Shown: positions 1-27,201 of the stretch, piece by piece | How positions within the stretch are numbered: the first letter of the stretch is position 1 | Layout: every line of letters begins with the position of its first letter | Virus record (IMG/VR): IMGVR_UViG_2778261064_000019 | DNA length: 35,546 nt | Source of the DNA: a virus | Taxonomy: Duplodnaviria; Heunggongvirae; Uroviricota; Caudoviricetes | Strand: one strand, 5' to 3' | The notes under the pieces: model-generated | Seen by the model: the letters and a program-made list of their open reading frames with translations, nothing else | The model's database searches: none | What the model was told of the DNA's origin: nothing | Position numbers and translations under genes: made by a program

Positions 1-1200
1 ATGCTGACCGATACCAAACTGAAAAACCTCAAAGCGCGGGAAAAACTTTATAAAGTTGCAGACCGTGATGGGCTGTATGTAACCGTATCTCCCAAGGGAT
101 TGGTGACGTTTCGCTATGACTATCGAATCAATGGTCGTCGTGAAACGTTAACTATTGGTCGCTATGGTGACGGTATTTCTCTGGCGCAGGCGCGCGAAAA
201 ATTAGTGGAAGCCAAAAAACGCGTAAATGCAGGAATATCGCCCGCTGGAGAGAAGCGTGACGGTAAAACAAAGCGAAAAGAAGAAAAGACACTCCACGAT
301 TTTACCGTCAGCTACATGAAACACACCCGGCTGGCGGACAGCACAAGGGCGATGAAGCAAAGCATTATCGACAGAGACATCACGCCAGTATGGGGGCGCA
401 AGCTGCTGTCAGAGATAACCCCCTCTCTCCTACGTGAGTATTGCGACAAGATAAAAGCGCGTGGTGCGCCAGCGACGGCGATTCAGGTTCGCAATATCGT
501 TAGTGCGGTATTTAAGTTCGCCGCGCTTCACGGCGACTATTACCCCAATCCTGCCGAAGAGGTTTTACCGGCTTCAATTGCGACATTCGAAGCGCGCGAC
601 AGGGCGCTCAAGCCAGAGGAGATAGGCTGGTTTTTCAATCAGCTTGAACAAACGGGTACATTACCCACCATCAAGCTGGCCATTAAATTGGTTTTATTAA
701 CGATGGTACGTAAAAGTGAACTGCTGAACGCTCCGTGGGGTGAGGTTAATTTTAATGCCTGCCTTTGGACGATTGACGCCAGCCGGATGAAGGGATCACG
801 GGATCATAATGTTTATCTGTCCCGGCAGGCACAGGACATTCTGATTGCCCTGAAAATGTGCGCAGGAAGCAGTGATTGGGTTTTGCCTTCATGCAATCAG
901 TCGTCGCATAAGACCATGTCGGCGGCGACCTTAAACCGGGTCATTAATCTTACGGTTAAGCAGGCGCAGGAACGGGGGATCAGGCTGGCGTCGTTTTCCG
1001 TTCACGATATGCGCCGAACGGCATCGACGTTATTGCATGAGGCGGGGTTTAATTCCGACTGGATAGAAAAATGCCTCGCGCACGAGGAAAGAAGCGTCAG
1101 AGCCGTTTATAACAAAGCGGAATACGCAGAGCAGCGCCGTGATATGTTGCAGCAGTGGGCGGATATGGTTGATGGGTGGATCAAGCAATACCGCCCGTAA
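1..1200 (+). CDS. int: Tyrosine integrase, P4/CP4-57-like family
   Basis: 399-aa ORF. N-terminus LTDTKLKNLK...DGLYVTVSPKG...FRYDYR is typical of P4-type integrases; C-terminal region HDMRRT...AHEERSVRAVY fits the tyrosine-recombinase catalytic region. ORF starts at the window edge, so the true 5' end and the att site are not visible. Confidence 0.85.
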   Translation: MLTDTKLKNLKAREKLYKVADRDGLYVTVSPKGLVTFRYDYRINGRRETLTIGRYGDGISLAQAREKLVEAKKRVNAGISPAGEKRDGKTKRKEEKTLHDFTVSYMKHTRLADSTRAMKQSIIDRDITPVWGRKLLSEITPSLLREYCDKIKARGAPATAIQVRNIVSAVFKFAALHGDYYPNPAEEVLPASIATFEARDRALKPEEIGWFFNQLEQTGTLPTIKLAIKLVLLTMVRKSELLNAPWGEVNFNACLWTIDASRMKGSRDHNVYLSRQAQDILIALKMCAGSSDWVLPSCNQSSHKTMSAATLNRVINLTVKQAQERGIRLASFSVHDMRRTASTLLHEAGFNSDWIEKCLAHEERSVRAVYNKAEYAEQRRDMLQQWADMVDGWIKQYRP

Positions 1201-1203
1201 GTA

Positions 1204-1458
1204 CTATGCGGGGATCTTGGTACCAGAGCGCTTTGGGACTTTGGCCAGATTTTTCTGTACCGCGTTATCAATATGGTGATGGTTATTTTCCTGCCGTGCT
1301 TTGAGCCAGCGTTCCACTTCCTCTTTGTCCCACGCGACGGCGCGCTTCGTTAGCGCAAAACGTTTGGGAAACAGGCCTTTTTGCTCCAACGCATAAATCG
1401 TACTTTCAGAGAGTGGCACCATCTGTAAAAGCACGTTTTTTCTAATGGCAATTTTCAT
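1204..1458 (-). CDS. AlpA-family HTH regulator / excisionase-like protein
   Basis: 84-aa ORF convergent with int (3-bp gap). Segment STIYALEQKGLFPKRFALTKRAVAWDKEEVERWL resembles AlpA/phage regulatory protein family. Start may be the internal Met at 1422. Confidence 0.65.
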   Translation of the reverse strand: MKIAIRKNVLLQMVPLSESTIYALEQKGLFPKRFALTKRAVAWDKEEVERWLKARQENNHHHIDNAVQKNLAKVPKRSGTKIPA

Positions 1459-2856: not shown

Positions 2857-5514
2857 TTAACGTTGAAAAACCCAACACTTCACCGTCGCCGGGCGGCGCG
2901 GTGCGGCTGGGTAACGGCGGTTAAATTCAGCGTTGATGCCGCTGTTAACCGTTCTGACTTCAATAAACTTGTGGGTACGGCTGGTTTTTAGCACTCGCTT
3001 CAAATCGCTGATCGGCGGGATCTGCTGGCGGCGCTCGGTAGCCAGTTGAATAAAGTGGTTAAGGTTAACGGCGATAAGCTGTTCATCGCGCGAGTGGTTG
3101 AGCTGTGGTTCGTCGTCGCCATCGAGGAAGTCGAAAATATCCCAGAACTCCTGCACCAGAGGATGGTCGGCGCTGATGGCCTGTTGGCGCTCCAGACTGA
3201 GGCGGATAAACATTTCTCTGGTCGCCTGTAGCTGCTCTTCCGTGACCGGAATAACCAGCGCCAGCGCGTCGAGCAGCGCCATAAGCTGGGCGTGGTTTTT
3301 AATGATGCGGATATGGCGAATATCTGGGTGGGAGTGAAGTTGCTGCTCGTATAGCGGGATCTGACGGTTAACGCACTCCAGCACGGCCTGTTCCGCCAGC
3401 GCTGCCTTCAGCATAAAGCCGGAAAGCTGTTCTACCGGCAGGCGTTCGAGCTGCTCGGCAGCGACCTTGGTCTGAGTATTCTGGCCGCTGCGGTCGGTGT
3501 ACAGGTGAATAATACGTTCCAGCACCGGGTTAGAGGCGCTAACATCGGCGTTTTGCGCAATCACAATCGCGCCCCGGAACGGCGGTTCATAGGTCTCGTT
3601 GCCGCTGTTACGCAGACCGCGAGAACGCACCGACCGCCCGTTATAGGCGGTTTTCAGCTCTTCCCAATCAAAGCCACGCTGCTTTGCCCCCTCCTGATTA
3701 CGGTCACCCTCGATCAGCACCACCGGCATATTTGCTACCTGCGCAAAGTTGCGCGCGCGGGCGGCCAGCGTTGATTTAGACGGATCGAAACCTTCATAGT
3801 CGCGTCGGCCCAACAGTTTTCAGAGGAACTCTATCAGCGTGGTTTTACCGCTGCCGGGTTCGCCAACGATTTCCAGAAATGGAAAGCTCTTGTGCTTGTC
3901 GCGGATCTGTTCGGCAAACATCGTCCCAAACCAGTACGCCAGCGCCACAAACCCCTTTGCGCCAAACGCCTGCCAGAGTAGCTGGGGCCACTGGCTGTCC
4001 ATCTGTTTTAAATTGTCGTTCAGCGTCAGGCTGACCGACTGGTTCAGGCTTTTAAGGCTAAGTTTGCCCATGTCGAAGAAGTCTTCTTCGTTGAGTGTGT
4101 ACAGCCGACCATCGCGAACGGCCAGATCGTTGAACACGTAAGCGCGGTATTCTTTGCTGTAGCCGATAAAATCAGTGGTCTGGACAGTTTTGATTTTGGG
4201 AAGCTGCTTGAGCAGCAACTTATCTAACTGCTGACTGGTGCCGGTGAAGATGCCGCCCTGCGCGATATGCAGCAGGCGCTTTTTGAATTCTGAGCCGCTG
4301 GAAAGTTGGGAGCCGGTGAAGGTGTTTTTTATCGGTGGAGTGTCGTCGGGGAAGTTAATGCGAAAGTAATACCAGCTTTCGTCGGTAATGGTGTTGGCCT
4401 GATAGTAGAGGGTGGTCGGGTAGCAGTTGGCTATCTCAACAACGGCGGCTGACTCCTGTAGCGCTTTATGTTTGGCTTCTTCTTCGTCCAGCTCCTCTTT
4501 GCCGTTATACATCACGTTATCAAAGGCACGCATATAACGGTCAATATCCAGCTTGAACCAGTACAGGCGGCTGTCGAACTCGAAGTGAAACTCTTTGCGT
4601 TCGGTACGCTCATGCATCAGTAATGCTTTGGCATTCGGATTGGGAGCGATCAACAGTGAACCGTAGTAACGATATTTTTTAATCAGATCCGGGTTTAGCC
4701 GATCGCGCTGGTGCAAATCGTTCCAGTCCAGCTTGGTGCGGGAATAGGGCGTTTGTGCGGCGGTGGAAAGCCAGCCGTCGTCGCGGCTGCGTTTTACCCA
4801 GCGGCGGGTGTAATTCATGCCCGCTTTGTCGTTATCCAGCGCCCAGACCAGTAAAGGACGCTTTTTATCCACGAACAGCGCGGCCAGTTGGCTTAACGCC
4901 TGCGCCGGATAGTTGTTACAGGTCATCAGGGAAACGGCGGCAATGCCGTGGTGGTGCAGGGCGATAGCGTCAAAAATGCCCTCAACCAGCCAGATCTCCT
5001 GCTGTTCTTCCAGCTTAAGCGTTGGCAATTGCCACCATAGCCCGCTGTAAGCGCCGTGAAAATTGGCTTTGCGATCGCCGAAACGCTGTGGGCGGTCAAC
5101 GATCCGCTCCCACCACACGCCGTCAGCCAGCGGGAAACGCACAGTGGCCGAGCCGAGATCGCGCCGTGCGTCATAGTAGTTCTCTTGAGCGTAACAGTTA
5201 CGGAGCAGCGAAAGGTCAAAGCCGCGCATCTCGCGCAGGTAGGCATCGGCGGCGGCCTGTGGGTTTTCCGGGGTTGGGGGATATCTGTCTGACCAGCTTT
5301 CAAATAGATCCGGGTACACCTCTTTGATATGGATTTCGGCATTGCATTTATTCAGGCGACCGCAGCGCAGTACCCACGGGCTGATGGCGTAGGTGTACAG
5401 CTCTTTTTTCTGGCAGTCCGGGCAGACGCCCTGCCGCAGCCAGTCGCCCTGTTCTTTAAAGGAAAAATCGGCTAGCAGTCGCCGCGTAATTTCCTGATGA
5501 AGTTGTGGTTGCAT
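2857..5514 (-). pseudogene. P4 alpha-like primase-helicase interrupted by an in-frame TGA (fragments 3820..5514 and 2857..3813)
   Basis: The two ORFs are in the same frame, separated by a single TGA at 3820..3822 (translation ...GEPGSGKTTLIEFL*KLLGRRDYEGF...). N-terminal Cys-rich zinc-binding motifs (CPDCQKK, CGRLNKC) and a Toprim-like segment (LVEGIFDAIALHHHG); Walker A (GEPGSGKTT) sits just before the stop, and the helicase region continues after it. Confidence 0.6.
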
Positions 5515-5602
5515 TGCCAGTACCTTTATTCAGGTAATACTTACCCGTCGCATAGACACGTTGTTTATGCGTTGTGGTTGTGAGTCTTTTATTTACTGAG
5601 CG

Positions 5603-5833
5603 TTACGCGATTTTCTGCTTTTGCAGAAATTGCCCGCGTGTGGATAGCGGTATGTGTATCTTAGGATTCGGGCAACCGCTGGGTACTACCGTTCCCATCA
5701 CGGTCTCCATCGCGATAAATGAAAACGAACAGTTAACGTTCTTGCACTGGTAATAGAGCTTACGTACCAGCGGTGACATATATTCGCTGCTGCGAATTAT
5801 CGCCTTACCGTCGCAGTGTGGGCATTTCATCAT
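5603..5833 (-). CDS. ogr: Ogr/Delta-family zinc-finger late-gene transcriptional activator
   Basis: MMKCPHCDGKAIIRSSE...YYQCKNVNCSFSF matches the Cys4 motif of P2 Ogr. Start set at ATG 5833 (AGGAG 7 nt upstream) rather than the longer ORF start at 5851. Monomer size (76 aa) is Ogr-like, not the duplicated P4 Delta. Confidence 0.85.
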   Translation of the reverse strand: MMKCPHCDGKAIIRSSEYMSPLVRKLYYQCKNVNCSFSFIAMETVMGTVVPSGCPNPKIHIPLSTRGQFLQKQKIA

Positions 5834-6156
5834 GTCCGATCTCCTTACCACTTTTAACTAACTGAAACACTAACGCTTTTCGTTAACGGACTGACGAAAT
5901 AGTGTGATGCCGTTCAAAAAAATGATTCTTGCCATGCTGGACATCGAACGGTTCTGCTCCAGCGCTAATGCTTACAGTTCCGCGATTTCAGCGGGGAGCA
6001 GACGCATTGCCACCGGTTTGTTCGACATCACCCCGCGGGGTGCTCGTGAGCGTAAGACGTTCTCATTTGTTTTCATGGTGGTATATTGTGGTTATTAACA
6101 TTACACAATCTATAATTCCCTCAATTGAGTGAATTGTCAATGGTAATTATATCCAA
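5834..6156. promoter_or_regulatory. Divergent intergenic control region between ogr (minus) and the XRE gene (plus)
   Basis: 323-bp non-coding gap between divergently transcribed genes. Contains a 14-bp perfect palindrome CACCCCGCGGGGTG (6029..6042), palindrome TCAATTGA (6121..6128), TATAAT (6111..6116) and TTGTCA (6135..6140). Promoter assignment is not resolved. Confidence 0.35.
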
Positions 6157-6495
6157 ATGAAAGAATTTGGCATCCGTTTGAAGGAAGAACGTATCCGACT
6201 TGGCCTTGATCAAGACGGCTTTGGACAACTTGGGGGCGTGAAGAAAAACGCACAAAGTAACTATGAGAATGGACTGCGCAAGCCGGACAGTGACTATCTT
6301 GCTGGCATAGCGGCAGCGGGAGTTGATGTTCTGTATGTTCTAACAGGCAACCGCACGCCTGTGGCTACGTTGTCCAGTAAAGAGAGTGTGTTGGTGGAGA
6401 ACTATCGTTCTGCTACGCCAGAACACCAGTCCACCCTTGACACGGTTAGCGCTGCGCTTGCGCAACCGGGAGTAGGGAAAGCAGCTAAGGGATAA
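6157..6495 (+). CDS. XRE-family helix-turn-helix regulator (candidate prophage repressor or cargo regulator)
   Basis: 112-aa ORF; N-terminal HTH pattern (IRLKEERIRLGLDQDGFGQLGGVKKNAQSNYENGLRKP) is typical of Cro/CI-type regulators. Divergent from the ogr-primase string, directly upstream of the AT-rich operon. Confidence 0.7.
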   Translation: MKEFGIRLKEERIRLGLDQDGFGQLGGVKKNAQSNYENGLRKPDSDYLAGIAAAGVDVLYVLTGNRTPVATLSSKESVLVENYRSATPEHQSTLDTVSAALAQPGVGKAAKG

Positions 6496-6535
6496 CGAGT
6501 AGAATGAATTTGGTTATTGTCTGTATGGAGGCAAA

Positions 6536-7108
6536 ATGAAGTTGAATAATCTGGTTGCTCTTTACAGGAACATGACAGAGCAAAAATTGGATAGGGTTAA
6601 ATTCCCATACAGACACAATAATTTACATTTTGATGTATTTTTCTTTATTGATGGAAAACCGTTTGAGCTTCTTTTCGGAGCATTAGGCGCTAATCTTTGC
6701 TTTCGTCTAAAAGTCGAGAAGGGATTCGTCATAAATCCTAATCTGGGAAGTGAGACTTATAAAGAATTATGCAAGGCGCTAGGTTTGAAATATGACCCTG
6801 CCAATCCATTTAGAACAAGTAAGTTTTTTGAAGATTTTGATGGGAAAATCCCTACATCGGTTACTGTTAAGAATAAGGCAAAATATACTGATATTGCTGT
6901 GCATGTCAGGGATGTTGAAGAAGCAGACAGAATATATTTCTGTGGATGGAAAAACAACAATGAAGAAAAGAGTCATGTTACTGAAGATAATTTAAAGAAA
7001 ACGAAAGAGTTTTTAGGGTATCAGGCTTTTCTTGTTTGTAAGGAAAAGAATATTAGCAGTAGATGGACTGATTTAGAAAATAAAGCAAAAGATTTTTATT
7101 TACCATAG
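6536..7108 (+). CDS. Hypothetical protein, AT-rich cargo operon gene 1
   Basis: 190-aa ORF with GGAGG-like RBS before the ATG. Strongly AT-biased codon usage unlike the flanking phage genes. No family recognised. Confidence 0.6.
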   Translation: MKLNNLVALYRNMTEQKLDRVKFPYRHNNLHFDVFFFIDGKPFELLFGALGANLCFRLKVEKGFVINPNLGSETYKELCKALGLKYDPANPFRTSKFFEDFDGKIPTSVTVKNKAKYTDIAVHVRDVEEADRIYFCGWKNNNEEKSHVTEDNLKKTKEFLGYQAFLVCKEKNISSRWTDLENKAKDFYLP

Positions 7109-7122
7109 GATTGTGAGGTTAT

Positions 7123-8271
7123 ATGTCTGATATTTCATTAGGGTGCGTGGTTGTTCATAGGTTGATAAAAGAGCAACATAAAGATTTCGATCACTCAAAA
7201 CCATATAGTCGCCGTGATACGGTTCTTGACCGAAATAATGAAATCGTAATTAAACTAGTGTCCAGTATAGCCGCATTGTATGGTAAAAAATCTAATAGCT
7301 CGCATTATGGTATATTTAATTTAGATGAAACACGCAGGGGGCCTTTTCCAGCGGAATTTGATAAATATCGGAATGATACATCCAAGAAGTTAGACGATGA
7401 ATTGTTTATAGGATTATCAAAAAATGTTATGCATCAGTTATATATTGAGGCAAAGGATCGACCTGCTGCATCAGGAGGATTACTTCTTTTTGCTGATTAT
7501 ATCAGTAAATCCGTGCGTTACTTTCTTATTGCAATGATTAAGCAAAAGGAAGGTATAGTTATTAGTGATAAATTAGAGCCAAAGGAGTTAGAGCATCTTG
7601 ATCTGGCAAAACTAAACCAGGCGGCACGAATAAACTATGATTTGTATGATAAATATATTTCCGCTGATGAGAATGAAAGACAGGATGTTAATTATTTAAG
7701 TTTTGTTAGTCCCAGTTCTAACCAGACAACTTCAGGGTATTTCATTACTGCCTTAGGTTGTGATAAAGGTAATACATCAACTAAAGCTACGAGTAATTTA
7801 ATTAATGAATCTTTTAACTTCTTCAGAAATCATCAAGAATTAAAGGATAATGCCCGTAAATTTAAAAATGAAATTATTGAGTATTTATTCGATTGTTCTG
7901 AAAATAACATTTCAGCTAAGCTCTCTGTTGTTAGTGAGATGGCGGCGAAGCATATGGTTAATTTAGAAGATGACATTAAAGATAAATTGTCAGAAGAATT
8001 ATATGCTCATTTGAATAGTGAAAGTATTCGTGTGCCTGTGGAATTTAGGGTAAGCAAATCAGTAGTTAAGAAAAACAGAAATATTAAATATACAAGTGAT
8101 AATGTTAATTTTGAGTTTAAATCTAGTTTACTAGGCAATACTCTTGATAATGAGATATGCTATAATAAGAAAACTGGACATTTAACTTTTACTCGGATTA
8201 CTCCTGAGAAAAAAAGTGAAATAGCTCAATTGCTTGATGAGTTAATAAAAGAAAGAAATAGCGAAAAATAA
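7123..8271 (+). CDS. YejK/NdpA-like (NA37 family) nucleoid-associated protein homologue, cargo gene 2
   Basis: 382-aa ORF, 14 bp after gene 1 with a GTGAGG RBS. Full-length pattern similarity to E. coli YejK as recalled: MSDISLGCVVVHRLIK vs MSLDINQIALHQLIK; ASGGLLLFADYISKSVRYFLIAMI vs [25 protein letters not shown]. Not verified by search. Confidence 0.6.
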   Translation: MSDISLGCVVVHRLIKEQHKDFDHSKPYSRRDTVLDRNNEIVIKLVSSIAALYGKKSNSSHYGIFNLDETRRGPFPAEFDKYRNDTSKKLDDELFIGLSKNVMHQLYIEAKDRPAASGGLLLFADYISKSVRYFLIAMIKQKEGIVISDKLEPKELEHLDLAKLNQAARINYDLYDKYISADENERQDVNYLSFVSPSSNQTTSGYFITALGCDKGNTSTKATSNLINESFNFFRNHQELKDNARKFKNEIIEYLFDCSENNISAKLSVVSEMAAKHMVNLEDDIKDKLSEELYAHLNSESIRVPVEFRVSKSVVKKNRNIKYTSDNVNFEFKSSLLGNTLDNEICYNKKTGHLTFTRITPEKKSEIAQLLDELIKERNSEK

Positions 8272-8282
8272 GGTTGCTTAAT

Positions 8283-8912
8283 ATGTCATGTTTTGAAACG
8301 GTTGTTGAGCTTTTCAGATATGTAGGGCGTCCTAAATTTGATGCTATTAATAATCGTTTTTCAGCAACTATTTCTTATGATGCTCATATATATGAACTCT
8401 TAGTTTCTTTGCAACCTCATACAGCGTGGGGAGAAATTGAAGAGATTGTCATTGATGATGTGGATATAGATGTTGATGATAGCCTTCCCGCTAAAGGAAC
8501 ATCAATAACACTGACAATCTCTATATCAACTGGAGCTAGTGAGTCATTTTTTATCGATATTAAAGATCTAATTCAAAAGTCTCCGATGTTAAATAGAGGT
8601 ATTTTAAGAAAGTCTTTTTACTTGGTTGAGGAAGATTTTTATTTTAATGAAGGAATGGTTGAGGGATTAGCAAAAATACCAGAACTATCTGTTTTAAAGA
8701 ATCTTTGTGATTTTATTTTATGTCTATCAAAAGTTGCACACTACAGCAATAGTAAAAGTGATGATGTATGCCATAAGTTAGTTTTCTTGAAAAATACTAA
8801 TGCTAAGTCATTACCTTTAATTATTGAAACTAATGTTGATTATTCACTTCTTTTAACAGGTATTAAGGATTTAAAAATCATCGAATCTTTTTCTGATGAA
8901 AAAAAGCTATAA
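8283..8912 (+). CDS. Hypothetical acidic protein, cargo gene 3
   Basis: ORF track starts at TTG 8274; the first ATG is at 8283, about 11 nt after the gene 2 stop. Contains acidic stretch EEIVIDDVDIDVDDS. No family recognised. Confidence 0.55.
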   Translation: MSCFETVVELFRYVGRPKFDAINNRFSATISYDAHIYELLVSLQPHTAWGEIEEIVIDDVDIDVDDSLPAKGTSITLTISISTGASESFFIDIKDLIQKSPMLNRGILRKSFYLVEEDFYFNEGMVEGLAKIPELSVLKNLCDFILCLSKVAHYSNSKSDDVCHKLVFLKNTNAKSLPLIIETNVDYSLLLTGIKDLKIIESFSDEKKL

Positions 8913-8956
8913 CGGATGATAATTATTTTGAGCGAAAAGGGATTTTCATTAATACG

Positions 8957-9538
8957 GTGGTCGATTTTCTTGAATCAATCGATGTAAAGAAACAGTTTCA
9001 TTTTTTATTCTGTGAGTGGGATGAATTTCTAAAACTATACCATAATAACCTCGGTGTATATCTTAGTGGTTTTTCATTTCATAAAGTAAGAAAGGAAGTG
9101 GCAGAGGCAGAAGCTAATTTAGCTGAGCGTTTTTCAAAAATAATGTCAGACATGATAGCTAAGCTTTTAGGTATTCCTGTTTCTTTGGTTGCTACTTTTG
9201 GCATGATAAAATTAAATACCCTGCCGGAAATGTTAGTGGTTTTTTTAGGTGTATTGCTCACGTCGATAATTATGTTTTTTATTGTAAGAAGTCAATACAC
9301 ACAGTTTAGGATGATTTGTGATGCTAAAGATATTATATTTTCCCCATTAGTGAAAAAATCTGTAGGTTATACAGAAGATTTGAAAAAATTAGTATGCAAT
9401 GCAAAGGATAATTTAGACAAAAATCAGGTCATGTTAAATCGTTACCTTCTTTTCTTTCAATGCTTATGCTGGATTCCGACAGCCTTAGGTGGTGGAATGA
9501 TCTTAATGGCTATTATGGTTCATTTAGGATTACTATAA
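8957..9538 (+). CDS. Predicted multi-pass membrane protein, cargo gene 4
   Basis: Hydrophobic segments IPVSLVATFGMI, MLVVFLGVLLTSIIMFFIV and YLLFFQCLCWIPTALGGGMILMAIMVHLGLL. Track start is a GTG at 8957, so the true start is uncertain. Stop codon overlaps the gpD stop convergently. Confidence 0.5.
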   Translation: MVDFLESIDVKKQFHFLFCEWDEFLKLYHNNLGVYLSGFSFHKVRKEVAEAEANLAERFSKIMSDMIAKLLGIPVSLVATFGMIKLNTLPEMLVVFLGVLLTSIIMFFIVRSQYTQFRMICDAKDIIFSPLVKKSVGYTEDLKKLVCNAKDNLDKNQVMLNRYLLFFQCLCWIPTALGGGMILMAIMVHLGLL

Positions 9539-10633
9539 ACTTAATTCCATTTCTAATGCGGTGACATAACCAGTACCGCCATCCAACGTATGCACGCACC
9601 GCGTAATCACCCACGCGGTGCCATCAATTTCCGCCTTAAACCCCTTCACCTGCAGCGGTAATTCCGGGAACAAATCGGGCCGTCCACGCGCAAGATTCAG
9701 GCTGAACGTTGCCGCGCCGCGCTGTAGCTGCTCCCACGCGCTTTTTGCCGCTCTGTAGGCGTTATTTTTGTTGGCATAGGTGTGGCGCAGCACCTTGATA
9801 TTTCCCTCTTCGCCAACCATCACGTTATCAGCATTGAATGAGGCGTCTGACGGCGGAGATTCTGTTGGTTGCGTTTGTGGACGGTTTTTCCGTGTCTTGC
9901 GCTTCATGTCAGTGGACTGCTTTTTTGCCTGCCGTGTATCCAGCCAGTAGGCCGTCACACCGGTATACGCCTCCCTGTCCGCGATGCTGAACCGGTGGCT
10001 GTCGCCGTCCTCGCGGGTAATGGTTGCGACCGGCAGCGGTTTGCCGCTGGCACTTTTACCGGAACCTGTCGGCATTAGCAGCAGAGCATCATTTTTCACG
10101 CAGGCGATAGCGCCGTGCAGTTGCGCCAGCCGGGTCAGGAAGGAGGCATCGGATTCGTTAGTCTGGTCAACGTGCTCAATGGCGATCCCAGCCAGCTCGC
10201 CGCTGACGGTTGATTCCAGCTTATGACGCGCCGCCACGGTTTGCACAATCGCGCCCAGCGTCGCATCATGGTAGCTCTGTTCCCGTTTAACGTTCAGCGA
10301 ATCGCGGAAATCGGCGCTGCGGGCGCGGAGGCTGAGTACGTCCGGTGCGCCGCTGTGCTCCAGTTCGTCCACTGTGAAGACATTCTGGTGCATCACGCCG
10401 TCACCCTTCCAGCCTAGAGAAACCGTTAGCTTTTCGCCCTTTGCCGGAAACGCCAGCAGGCCGTCGCTGTCGTCCAGTTCGAGCTGCAGTTCGTCGGCCT
10501 CAAAGCCCCGGTTGTCGGTGATACGCAGGCTGATTAAGCGGTTGTCCAGATTCCGCGTAATGTCCTTACCGTTCAGCACCACGCTGTACTCCGGCTGCGG
10601 CTGGGCGTTTAAGAGTGCGTTTAACATCGTCAT
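9533..10633 (-). CDS. D: P2 gpD-like tail protein (late control D)
   Basis: 366-aa ORF at the end of the T-U-D string, in the order and size expected for P2 D. Confidence 0.8.
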   Translation of the reverse strand: MTMLNALLNAQPQPEYSVVLNGKDITRNLDNRLISLRITDNRGFEADELQLELDDSDGLLAFPAKGEKLTVSLGWKGDGVMHQNVFTVDELEHSGAPDVLSLRARSADFRDSLNVKREQSYHDATLGAIVQTVAARHKLESTVSGELAGIAIEHVDQTNESDASFLTRLAQLHGAIACVKNDALLLMPTGSGKSASGKPLPVATITREDGDSHRFSIADREAYTGVTAYWLDTRQAKKQSTDMKRKTRKNRPQTQPTESPPSDASFNADNVMVGEEGNIKVLRHTYANKNNAYRAAKSAWEQLQRGAATFSLNLARGRPDLFPELPLQVKGFKAEIDGTAWVITRCVHTLDGGTGYVTALEMELSL

Positions 10634-16159: not shown

Positions 16160-16918
16160 TTAATTCAGGATAATCAGTTCTGATGTGGTGCTGGCTGGCT
16201 TTCCACCTACGGTATAGCGAATCCCTACCGTTGAGAATGTCAGGCCGTGGAAGATATCGCGCATTTCCGGGATGTCGTTAACCGAGATAATCATCCGGCC
16301 CTGCATGGTGCGCGCCAGCTCTGCCATACGCTGGTACTGCTCAAGGCCAAATGGTACGCCGTAGCCTTCGGTTTTCCAGTATGGTGGGTCGCAGTAGAAC
16401 AGGGTATGCGGGCGGTCATAGCGGCGAATACAGTCGGCCCAGTCCAGATTTTCAATGCAGACGCGCGCCAGCCGCAGATGGGCGGCGGATAAATCCTCTT
16501 CCATACGCAGCAGGTTCAGGCGCGGCGGTGAGGTGGTGGCGGTACCGAACGTGCGACTTTCCACTTTGCCGCCGAATGCCAGCTTTTGCAGATAGTAGAA
16601 GCGCGCCGCGCGCTGGATATCGGTCAGCGTTTCTTCCGGGGTGATCTGGAGCCAGCGGTACATTTCGCGGCTGACCAGCGACCATTTAAACTGGCGGACA
16701 AACTCTTCTAAATGGTGCTGAAGTACGCGGTAGAGGTTGGTAACGTCACCGTTGATATCGTTCAGCACCTCGGCCTGTGCGGGCTGTTTCATAAAGAACA
16801 ACGCTGCCGCCCCGCAGAACGGTTCAACGTAGCAGCGGTGTTTGGGAAACAGTGGCAGAATGTGTTTTGCCAGCCTGCGCTTACCGCCGATCCACGGAAT
16901 AACGGGTAACGTATTCAA
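16160..16918 (-). CDS. DNA N6-adenine methyltransferase (Dam-like), second copy
   Basis: 252-aa ORF with YVEPFCGAAALF AdoMet motif and DPPY motif (FYCDPPYWKTEGYG). Sits between the tail fibre assembly gene and FI, the position of the P2 Z/fun locus. Confidence 0.8.
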   Translation of the reverse strand: MNTLPVIPWIGGKRRLAKHILPLFPKHRCYVEPFCGAAALFFMKQPAQAEVLNDINGDVTNLYRVLQHHLEEFVRQFKWSLVSREMYRWLQITPEETLTDIQRAARFYYLQKLAFGGKVESRTFGTATTSPPRLNLLRMEEDLSAAHLRLARVCIENLDWADCIRRYDRPHTLFYCDPPYWKTEGYGVPFGLEQYQRMAELARTMQGRMIISVNDIPEMRDIFHGLTFSTVGIRYTVGGKPASTTSELIILN

Positions 16919-21905: not shown

Positions 21906-22241
21906 TTAACCGTGCGCAGCCTTCATCAGTGTATCGTTAATCCACTGGTTAACGCTTTTACCGGAGACTTCTGCCGCAACGTTAATGGCAGAGTGAATTT
22001 CAGGTGGAATACGCAGGCTGATTTTTCCGCTGGCCGGACGCAACGGCTCCCGGCCCCGTTCCTCGCAGTAAGCCAGATAGTCGTCTACCGCCTCTTCAAA
22101 CGCTTTACGCAGATCGGCAACATTATCGGCATGAAAGCCAATGACATCCCGAATGCCTGCAACGTGACCAACAATGCATTGATCTTCATCGCTGTATTCA
22201 ATTTTTGCGGCATAGCCTCTATATGTCATGGTATTCATCAT
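21906..22241 (-). CDS. hicB: HicB-family antitoxin
   Basis: 111-aa ORF 4 bp-overlapped with the upstream hicA-like gene. C-terminal RHH-like segment (KISLRIPPEIHSAINVAAEVSGKSVNQWINDTL). Confidence 0.75.
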   Translation of the reverse strand: MMNTMTYRGYAAKIEYSDEDQCIVGHVAGIRDVIGFHADNVADLRKAFEEAVDDYLAYCEERGREPLRPASGKISLRIPPEIHSAINVAAEVSGKSVNQWINDTLMKAAHG

Positions 22242-22501
22242 GGTGTTACCCCTACAGCTTCAAGGAATGTTCTGGCATCGCGAACCTGATAGGCTTTCGC
22301 TTCTTTTTCCGGGTGTGGACGATGAAATGAAGCCACAACCTGATTAATTTCAAACCTGACGCGGGAACCGTTTCCTTCCGTAGCAATAGCCCCCAAAGCA
22401 ATAAATAAGGCTTCTATTTTTCGCCATTCCAGCGTGACAGGTGTTGGCGTAGAAAAAACAGCTTGTAAGGTTTTTTTATGTTTGGCGCTTAACGTATTCA
22501 T
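22238..22501 (-). CDS. hicA: HicA-family toxin (mRNA interferase)
   Basis: 87-aa ORF with GS..RF.......FHRPHP.KE pattern consistent with the HicA fold, in hicA-hicB order. Confidence 0.65.
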   Translation of the reverse strand: MNTLSAKHKKTLQAVFSTPTPVTLEWRKIEALFIALGAIATEGNGSRVRFEINQVVASFHRPHPEKEAKAYQVRDARTFLEAVGVTP

Positions 22502-26394: not shown

Positions 26395-26562
26395 ATGAAT
26401 GAAAGAAGAGGAAATCCTCCGTTTCAGTTTCGACTCGATCCTGAACTGAGAAACGCGATGGAAGAAGCTAAAAAGCAAGATGGTGATGAATCACTGGCTG
26501 CGTGGATTAAGCGAATTATCAGAAAAGAGCTTCAGTCACGGGGTATAGAACCAAAAGATTAG
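26395..26562 (+). CDS. Arc/MetJ-type ribbon-helix-helix DNA-binding protein
   Basis: 55-aa ORF not in the track. FQFRLDPELRNAMEEAKKQDGDESLAAWIKRIIRKEL follows the Arc-like beta-strand/helix pattern. Inverted repeat TGTGAT-N10-ATCACA (26331..26352) lies upstream. Confidence 0.55.
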   Translation: MNERRGNPPFQFRLDPELRNAMEEAKKQDGDESLAAWIKRIIRKELQSRGIEPKD

Positions 26563-26608
26563 CAGATAGGTATATACTTTGAATAAAGAGTATTAGAGGT
26601 AAAAAATA

Positions 26609-26797
26609 ATGGCGAAGAATAGCAGTCCTGCCAGCCGATACGGTATCAAGGTCGTAAAAAGAGACAGTATGAGCGGGCAGTTTGTACCCGTCGAAATGAA
26701 GCTGGACGGCCCGGAAGGTGAGCGTGTGATTAAAAAGTCGGCAGAGCGTATTTATGCCAGACACAACAAAGTCATTAAGGCGCTGGCTAACCGATGA
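26609..26797 (+). CDS. Putative antitoxin partner of Doc (family unassigned)
   Basis: 62-aa ORF whose stop overlaps the doc ATG (ATGA), the classic coupled toxin-antitoxin arrangement. Sequence does not resemble Phd as recalled. Confidence 0.45.
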   Translation: MAKNSSPASRYGIKVVKRDSMSGQFVPVEMKLDGPEGERVIKKSAERIYARHNKVIKALANR

Positions 26798-27171
26798 TTG
26801 ATGCACATTTGGTGATTGGAATTCACGACTTTATTCTTGCTCATGAGCCGGGATTGGTTGGTTATCAGGATGCTGGCCGGGTCGAGGCAACACTGGCACG
26901 GGTGGATAACCGTATTCTGTATGAGCAGATGAATGATATTTTCCAGATCGCCGCATCTTATGCGGTTGCCATCGCCAGAGGGCACGTTTTTGCTGATGCC
27001 AACAAGCGAACGGCACTGGTGACGGCGTTGACATACCTTGATATGCAGGGTGTGAACCTCAAGCGAACACAAAAGCTGGAAGATATTATGGTGGATGTGG
27101 CTGAGGGAACGCTAAATCTGGATGATTTAGCCGATATTTTCTATACCCTTAGTGATGTAAATGCTTCCTGA
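26794..27171 (+). CDS. doc: Doc (death-on-curing) / Fic-family toxin
   Basis: 125-aa ORF with the Fic/Doc active-site motif HVFADANKRTAL. Confidence 0.8.
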   Translation: MIDAHLVIGIHDFILAHEPGLVGYQDAGRVEATLARVDNRILYEQMNDIFQIAASYAVAIARGHVFADANKRTALVTALTYLDMQGVNLKRTQKLEDIMVDVAEGTLNLDDLADIFYTLSDVNAS

Positions 27172-27176
27172 CGTTA

Positions 27177-27201
27177 CAGCCCGACAGATCGGGCTGTTTT
27201 T
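27177..27201 (+). terminator. Rho-independent terminator after doc
   Basis: 8-bp stem CAGCCCGA / TCGGGCTG with a 4-nt loop, followed by TTTTT. Confidence 0.6.

Follow-up and report, generated by a model that had tools for sequence, protein, structure and literature searches.

The window analysed here, a 35,546-nucleotide stretch of DNA recorded as virus IMGVR_UViG_2778261064_000019, is a P2-like prophage inserted adjoining guaA, an ordinary kind of element of a little-studied type. The question it raises is what holds such a prophage in lysogeny. The first-pass annotation had suggested a switch in a 323-bp non-coding interval at positions 5834-6156, which would make the product of the adjoining XRE-family gene the immunity repressor. 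The edges of this interval were correct, ogr starting at 5833 and XRE at 6157, but the interval is not non-coding: a minus-strand open reading frame (ORF) encoding an Arc-like protein fills 5870-6076, and only 6077-6156 is intergenic. Based on the analyses described below, we take the control region proper to be these 80 bp. We consider it likely that they and their two flanking genes constitute a switch in which the XRE protein represses from an operator-like dyad lying among facing promoters, with both the binding and the transcription starts predicted from sequence. We regard the XRE protein as very probably the immunity repressor; this part of the first-pass annotation is supported comparatively, by synteny, by covariation of the dyad with the repressor and by the genetics of phage phiBP82.2, while binding itself is predicted.

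About two thirds of the supposed non-coding interval is a broken small regulator gene. With its premature stop replaced, the ORF matched PHROG 3431, 'Arc-like repressor', with E=3.8e-18. The translation, read on the minus strand from 6076 down to 5870, is MKTNENVLRSRAPRGVMSNKPVAMRLLPAEIAEL*ALALEQNRSMSSMARIIFLNGITLFRQSVNEKR, with the asterisk marking the stop. This stop is a TAA at 5972-5974 (E35*), where strain L725 has GAA. Within the ORF, L725 and the window differ at six positions: four differences are silent, one makes a conservative E to D change and the sixth is the nonsense mutation. Intact 68-amino-acid (aa) versions were found in several hundred E. coli contigs, the three largest clusters numbering 340, 138 and 93, and gene callers placed a 68-aa gene at the corresponding position in contigs from Salmonella, Edwardsiella and metagenomes. 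RefSeq annotates the gene in strains L725 and GMF054 as 52 aa, which is too short because the N-terminus is conserved among relatives from the ATG at 6076. The annotation of this small gene, often overlooked or called too short, thus requires correction. The plus-strand ORFs at 5904-6098 and 5929-6132 are antisense to the Arc-like gene and were rejected as genes. The former corresponds in the near-identical strain to a RefSeq 64-aa 'hypothetical protein', WP_165289437.1 (L001, 20505-20699), which is almost certainly a spurious antisense artefact, annotated only because the real gene is broken. The intergenic region bounded by the Arc-like and XRE genes was exactly 80 bp in the window, in L725 and in metagenome-assembled genomes (MAGs) of an Enterobacteriaceae member and an Erwinia, and 80-81 bp in other relatives of the same immunity type. 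The Arc-like protein is a likely lytic-side regulator.

Within the 80 bp, the palindrome TCAATTGA that the first-pass annotation had singled out at 6121-6128 is present, and it extends to a 10-bp palindrome, CTCAATTGAG, at 6120-6129. However, it is only the centre of an operator-like dyad of 18-20 bp. Taken alone, TCAATTGA is at chance level: the 323-bp interval contained three 8-bp palindromes against 1.4 expected (P ~0.15). Moreover, of seven relatives sharing this repressor type, four retained it and three had an altered form, whereas the flanking arms of the larger dyad were retained. To define the dyad, we used seven sequences sharing the predicted recognition helix KKNAQSNYENG: the window, a Citrobacter-type MAG, Salmonella, two read-archive contigs, Erwinia and a Morganella remnant. 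The consensus TTYCMCTCA-WW-TGAGKGRAA occurred in all seven, at +39 to +59 from the arc ATG. The dyad is a perfect palindrome of 18 bp in L098 and of 20 bp in L092, and L089 and L092 differ by a symmetric compensating change on both arms (C..G to A..T). The site is unique in the 35.5-kb window: relaxed matches elsewhere were at chance level, and no extra operator copies above chance were found in the window. The dyad fills the spacer of the predicted early promoter, between its -35 and -10 elements, and touches both hexamers. A possible half-site, ATGAAAGAAT, lies over the XRE start codon; it is uncertain and may reflect no more than coding constraint. In L097 and phiE202, a clear second dyad, 31 bp away and covering the start codon of the repressor gene, was read from the sequences.

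The dyad also changes with the repressor. Thirteen further relatives yielded at least seven other kinds of dyad, located at this same position in 12 of them. Relatives with other helix-turn-helix (HTH) domains keep the Arc-like gene and carry different XRE N-terminal domains together with different dyads in the same place. Specifically, L087, L088 and L097 have two copies of TTGCAG-N4-CTGCAA, L085 and L093 have TAGGAAA-N4-TTCCCTA, phiE202 has AGTGGTC-N4-GGCCACT, and L227 to L234 have six further kinds, all at +42 to +63. In the otherwise diverged phages L097, L228 and L234, RTYCDYE-type recognition helices pair with TTGCAG/CTGCAA (TGCAG/CTGCA) half-sites. Similarly, the MSTxK-type repressors of L093 and L227 pair with AGGAA..TTCCT half-sites. 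An exact-pattern scan of viral contigs for the arc-side block returned nearly all chance matches and one useful locus. Of the evidence here, the covariation of dyad and repressor argues most strongly that the XRE protein would bind the dyad. The alignment of the window with L093 further indicates what is exchanged: the two are identical to 6108, unalignable from 6109 to ~6329 and near-identical thereafter, so the exchanged unit would comprise the core of the early promoter together with operator and HTH domain. In P2-like phages, paired repressor/operator specificity defines immunity classes (PMC3448106).

The 14-bp GC-rich palindrome, CACCCCGCGGGGTG, was found at 6029-6042 as claimed, but it lies within the Arc-like coding sequence and is unconserved, and so does not belong to the control region. 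The window contains four perfect 14-bp palindromes against ~2.6 expected, the other three being inside long ORFs; for the interval alone, P was ~0.03, uncorrected. The palindrome is broken in L725 (CACCCCGCGAGGCG), as it is in the Enterobacteriaceae MAG and the Erwinia relative. None of the three L725 substitutions within 6029-6076 changes the Arc-like protein. Roles as operator or terminator were rejected, as the palindrome is coding, unconserved and without a T-tract. We read it as a chance feature of coding sequence rather than a regulatory site.

Promoters were evaluated using a position-weight scan of both strands of the window and seven relatives, with which a simple scan agreed. Sigma-70-like hexamers were found on both strands, in keeping with the first-pass annotation. 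The face-to-face layout proposed there holds at the level of prediction: the best predicted promoters face each other, and the 5' ends of their transcripts would overlap by ~12 nucleotides. The early (lytic) promoter ranked first on the minus strand for the window and for six of the seven relatives, and second for L098, its position being the same in all. In phiE202, the equivalent is TTGACA-17-TATTCT, again at the same position. The repressor-gene promoter ranked first on the plus strand, both for the window and for six enterobacterial relatives representing three immunity types; its -35 element, TTCTCA, sits inside the first codons of the Arc-like gene. The TGnTATAnT block beside the arc ATG is retained in nearly all relatives, including most of the more distant loci; its variation is concentrated at hexamer position 5, at which a -10 element tolerates change. 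The starts predicted in silico, near 6094 on the plus strand and 6105 on the minus strand, are positionally conserved. Leaderless transcripts were rejected for either gene, there being no acceptable -35 by eye and no such site among the top scan matches.

The AlphaFold model of the XRE protein (predicted local distance difference test score 87) consists of a five-helix HTH domain followed by two C-terminal helices. Its nearest solved folds were SinR, the 434 repressor, P22 c2 and restriction-modification controller proteins. The root-mean-square deviation to the 434 and P22 c2 domains was 1.4-2.2 Å, and the C-terminal two-helix tail is SinR-like. Pfam returned no match to Peptidase_S24, the C-terminus being the two helices; RecA-driven self-cleavage is not expected, as the protein is without a peptidase domain. 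No relationship to P2 C or 186 CI was found in a PDB sequence search or among the Foldseek top 50, and the PHROG matches were to generic HTH families. The PADLOC search with the XRE protein gave just a weak match to the RmrA model (E=2.4e-06).

In the proposed switch, an XRE dimer bound to TTCCCTCAATTGAGTGAA (6116-6133) in the lysogen would block RNA polymerase at the early promoter; because the dyad fills the spacer between -35 and -10, bound repressor would exclude the polymerase. The early string, comprising the Arc-like gene, ogr, primase, DUF7673, Dam and AlpA, would thereby be repressed. The repressor would be made from the Arc-side promoter (extended -10 at 6079-6087, start near 6094), and the cargo probably from the same promoter. 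Facing promoters with overlapping transcripts would be expected to interfere with each other, and an operator placed at roughly +22 to +39 on the repressor's transcript would make self-limitation possible. Upon derepression, the early promoter would produce the Arc-like protein first, then Ogr, primase and the rest. By its position, the Arc-like protein may act in the role of Cro or Cox and shut the repressor promoter.

Several observations weigh against this model. Taken alone, the dyad is statistically ordinary: when the window's intergenic region was shuffled 300 times, 108 shuffles reached 7 of 8. The argument for an operator thus rests on position and on covariation across relatives. Neither the Arc-like gene nor the XRE gene has a Shine-Dalgarno sequence, and the repressor promoter scored poorly in phiE202. 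For the Arc-like protein, whose ribbon-helix-helix fold is putative, the match to Pfam RHH_5 was below the cut-off (E=0.008), and hhalign to a P22 Arc sequence entered by hand gave an insignificant score with the strand, the first helix and the G/N-R-S turn in register. The AlphaFold model of the monomer was poor, a single long helix with a predicted template-modelling score of 0.33, and was not used for a fold search. As for the phiBP82.2 genetics, gene numbering is mismatched between the paper and the GenBank record, so the extent of each deletion is ambiguous, and gp38 of the record is a 259-aa ORF spanning the Arc-like match, the control region and the 5' end of the repressor gene. Finally, a perfect plus-strand TATAAT at 6111-6116 scored nearly as well in the window as the preferred site and would change the geometry.

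This last hexamer defines the same switch in a divergent geometry, which we regard as unlikely. The repressor gene would be read from the TATAAT, with a start near 6123; the two -10 hexamers would overlap on opposite strands, the promoters would be mutually exclusive, and the operator would lie over the repressor's own start, giving direct autoregulation. The hexamer scored 9.2-10.5 in the window, L089 and L098 as compared with 11.0 for the preferred site. However, it has no good -35 (TGGTTA or GTGGTT) and was not among the top sites in L092, L006, the other immunity types or phiE202, whereas the extended -10 beside the arc ATG has been retained in nearly all relatives.

We consider it very improbable that the XRE protein is instead a dedicated regulator of the cargo, like the HTH regulators of defence systems, with lysogeny held by other means. 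Such a role would suit the direct succession of the XRE gene and the AT-rich cargo, with no terminator between them, and the persistence of a decayed XRE copy beside cargo in a Morganella remnant without phage genes. Nevertheless, the XRE gene accompanies the phage backbone in relatives whose cargo is entirely different, and its proposed operator is in the early-promoter core, not ahead of the cargo. The prophage also offers no other repressor candidate, no second CI-like regulator being annotated anywhere between guaA and yfgI. Furthermore, loss of the homologous gene region in phiBP82.2 leads to lytic growth (PMC13026187). That the palindromes are chance features and that there is no specific operator is scarcely credible: single-sequence statistics are indeed weak and the GC palindrome is coding and unconserved, but the dyad recurs at one fixed position in relatives, tracking the recognition helix of the repressor.

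We therefore retain the switch with facing promoters and the XRE protein as its repressor. Swaps between phages of a cassette of ~220 bp, made up of early-promoter core, operator and repressor HTH domain, may create new immunity types. The coordinates of the features are summarized in the following table.

Features of the control region and associated genes in the window (strand as +, - or none)
Feature	Position	Strand	Details
Integrase gene	1-1200	+	
AlpA-type excisionase-like gene	1204-1458	-	Far end of early string
ogr/delta-type zinc-finger late activator gene	5603..5833	-	Second gene of minus-strand string; Pfam Ogr_Delta E=1e-19; RefSeq annotation of identical gene
Arc-like gene, 68 codons	5870..6076	-	First gene of early string; pseudogene here; probably ribbon-helix-helix (RHH)
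14-bp GC palindrome	6029..6042		Codons 12-16 (A-P-R-G-V) of Arc-like gene
Predicted repressor-gene promoter	6060..6087	+	-35 TTCTCA (6060-6065), 16-bp spacer, extended -10 TGgTATATT (6079-6087), start near 6094
Exchangeable immunity cassette	6109..6329		Early-promoter core, operator, repressor HTH domain (~codons 1-58)
Predicted early (lytic) promoter	6112..6140	-	-35 TTGACA (6140-6135), 17-bp spacer, -10 AATTAT (6117-6112), start near 6105
Operator-like dyad	6116..6133		TTCCCTCAATTGAGTGAA = TTCCCTCA-AT-TGAGTGAA; looser form 6114-6135; proposed XRE dimer site
Possible weak second half-site	6157..6166		ATGAAAGAAT; over XRE start codon, ~32 bp from main dyad centre; read by eye
XRE-family HTH protein, 112 aa, proposed immunity repressor	6157..6495	+	Pfam HTH_3 24.4 bits vs cut-off 23
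AT-rich cargo	6536..9538	+	DUF6037, NA37 nucleoid-associated protein, split 418-aa gene; Pfam/PHROG matches

The cargo behind the repressor gene has a GC content of 28-35%. No terminator-like site was found in 6400-9700, and the cargo is probably co-transcribed with the repressor gene. Its adjacent ORFs at 8274-8912 and 8957-9538 match the N- and C-terminal halves of PHROG 5023; in GMF054 they correspond to one intact 418-aa gene, which is thus split in this lineage. The slot between the repressor gene and gpD carries a different AT-rich cargo in each relative (L002, L089, L092, L093, L094, L097 and L098); examples include NA37 with a RelA/SpoT-like kinase, WYL with TIR and a caspase-like peptidase, and DUF2971 with Abi_alpha. 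The slot looks like an anti-phage defence hotspot. Using the PADLOC anti-phage models, no matches were obtained for the four cargo proteins of the window. Both L098 and Morganella (L100) also have NA37 paired with a 418-423-aa protein. The Morganella morganii remnant (L100/L101) contains an integrase, the arc-side promoter block, a degraded operator, a truncated 64-aa XRE gene and the NA37 and 418-aa cargo; no ogr, primase or other phage gene was called in it. It looks as if promoter and cargo were kept there past the decay of the prophage.

Nearly every base of the window matches the E. coli 24A16CRGN010 chromosome, and three further strains are 97-99% identical to it. The regulatory region was present in just 4 of 5,426 complete E. 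coli genomes. The prophage spans guaA to yfgI and contains an integrase, the early string and P2-type tail, lysis and head genes up to the portal gene. On the minus strand, the genes are those for the AlpA-like protein, a Dam methylase, a DUF7673/FtsK-gamma protein and a toprim primase, followed by ogr; on the plus strand past the interval are the XRE gene, the AT-rich cargo and then the P2-type tail, lysis and head genes. The prophage encodes two D12-class adenine methylases, one in the early string (1442-2269) and one among the tail-fibre genes (16160-16918). The early-string methylase gene is missing from L725 and GMF054, in which the DUF7673 gene is shorter. The ORFs at 21906-22501 match in size and position the HicB/HicA pair annotated in the late region of the near-identical strain, and those at ~26500-27200 similarly match a Doc-type toxin and a small upstream gene annotated in that strain. 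If this correspondence holds, they are toxin-antitoxin morons within the structural genes.

The ogr gene has a Shine-Dalgarno sequence, AAGGAG, 7 nucleotides upstream of its ATG at 5833. The gap between it and the Arc-like gene is 36 bp, which leaves no room for a separate promoter. No terminator or attenuator was identified between the two genes, as the hairpin at 5868-5888 folds no better than shuffles (z=0.63), and no known RNA family matched in 5400-6700. On these grounds, ogr appears to belong to the early operon, in contrast to P2.

This copy of the prophage is decaying; its control region is otherwise an ordinary one. The primase ORF (2857-5514, minus strand) is broken by an in-frame TGA at 3820-3822 (W565*). 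Strain 24A16CRGN010 has TGG at the equivalent of these positions and an intact 885-aa primase, and W565* is either a true inactivating mutation or a sequencing error. The E35* mutation of the Arc-like gene is common to the window and this near-identical strain. With nonsense mutations in both genes, the copy in the window is probably defective and its lytic growth lost.

By gene order and protein similarity, the switch type is that of the Burkholderia phages phiE202, KS5 and phiBP82.2, not that of P2 C/Cox or 186 CI/Apl. Indeed, phiE202 and phiBP82.2 (Tigrvirus) and Carl1 (Kisquinquevirus) share the order gpD, cargo, XRE and, on the opposite strand, Arc-like gene, ogr, small ORFs and a large gene at the primase position. 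The integrase ends the early-side order in phiE202 and Carl1, and the published gene table of KS5 (Kisquinquevirus) matches the same layout. In Carl1 (L004), a further small ORF separates the Arc-like gene from ogr, and the order in L003 is Arc-like, ogr, ..., primase. The gene at the primase position is annotated as 'DNA primase' in phiE202 and Carl1 and as 'DNA segregation ATPase' in phiBP82.2. In tblastn searches, the XRE protein was 61.6% identical over residues 4-89 to the regulator of phiE202 and phiBP82.2 (gp21 of phiE202) and 47% identical over its full length to that of Carl1. The Arc-like protein was 55% identical to phiE202 gp20 and 52-55% identical across the Burkholderia module. 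The intergenic region of phiE202 is 82 bp as compared with 80 bp in the window, with TTGACA, a 17-bp spacer and the -10 at the same position and a dyad in the spacer. The two differ in that the window type has one clear dyad and phiE202 has two, 31 bp apart, and in their operator sequences. The window further differs from the Burkholderia modules in its E. coli host, its GC content (~50% vs ~63%), the size of its repressor (112 vs 143-160 aa) and the integrase and AlpA/Dam end of the string. No relatives were found at the DNA level among sequenced phages.

In 2011, the regulators of the phiE202, phiCTX and phiRSA1 group were unidentifiable, no analogues of C, cox, cI or apl having been identified in phiE202-type phages (PMC3448106). 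A 2026 study of phiBP82.2 found high expression of its HTH regulator gene region in lysogens; lysogens deleted for this region were unrecoverable and the mutant phages killed better (PMC13026187). For the P2-like phage Milagro, competing face-to-face promoters were proposed, as cited in PMC13026187. In the sources consulted, the gene-deletion work in phiBP82.2 and the Milagro mutant study cited there are the only ones since 2011. The window thus adds a new E. coli member to a known, little-dissected switch type. Such a member would make the type mappable with standard tools, as its 80-bp region is precisely bounded, its operator is predicted and at least seven other specificities exist among natural variants. 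Opinion could fall evenly on whether this is a third, mechanistically distinct switch of the P2 family, in which an Arc-like protein replaces Cox/Apl, Ogr is made with the early genes, an immunity cassette of ~220 bp is swapped and the repressor promoter drives a hot-swappable slot for anti-phage cargo.

The likeness to P2 C/Cox (promoters Pe and Pc) is that the repressor and early genes diverge, with facing promoters of overlapping 5' ends, which are predicted here. Like P2 C, the XRE protein is small, is without a peptidase domain and has its site in the early-promoter core. P2 immunity classes are set by the repressor plus the spacer (PMC3448106 and established knowledge). However, P2 C binds direct repeats, whereas the site in the window is an inverted repeat, and there is no detectable homology to P2 C. 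No Cox/Apl-type first early gene was found in the window: the first early gene is Arc-like, as opposed to the Cox HTH excisionase of P2, and the AlpA-type gene is separate and adjoins int. In P2, ogr is located after gene D; in the window, it is inside the early string. Replication is represented by a toprim primase in place of gpA.

As compared with the 434, P22 c2 and lambda CI-Cro systems, the window shares the five-helix DNA-binding fold, a dyad-symmetric operator and accessory genes behind the repressor gene; in lambda, rexAB follow cI. The lambda type has a LexA-like cleavage domain, a tripartite operator, back-to-back promoters and an HTH protein in Cro. By contrast, the window has no such domain, one main operator, predicted facing promoters and an Arc-like protein. 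Finally, with respect to P22 Arc/Mnt (immI), the window protein belongs to the PHROG 'Arc-like repressor' family, and its similarity to Arc itself was not significant. P22 Arc regulates the antirepressor, whereas the Arc-like gene of the window is the first of the main early operon, and its presumed role is a different one.

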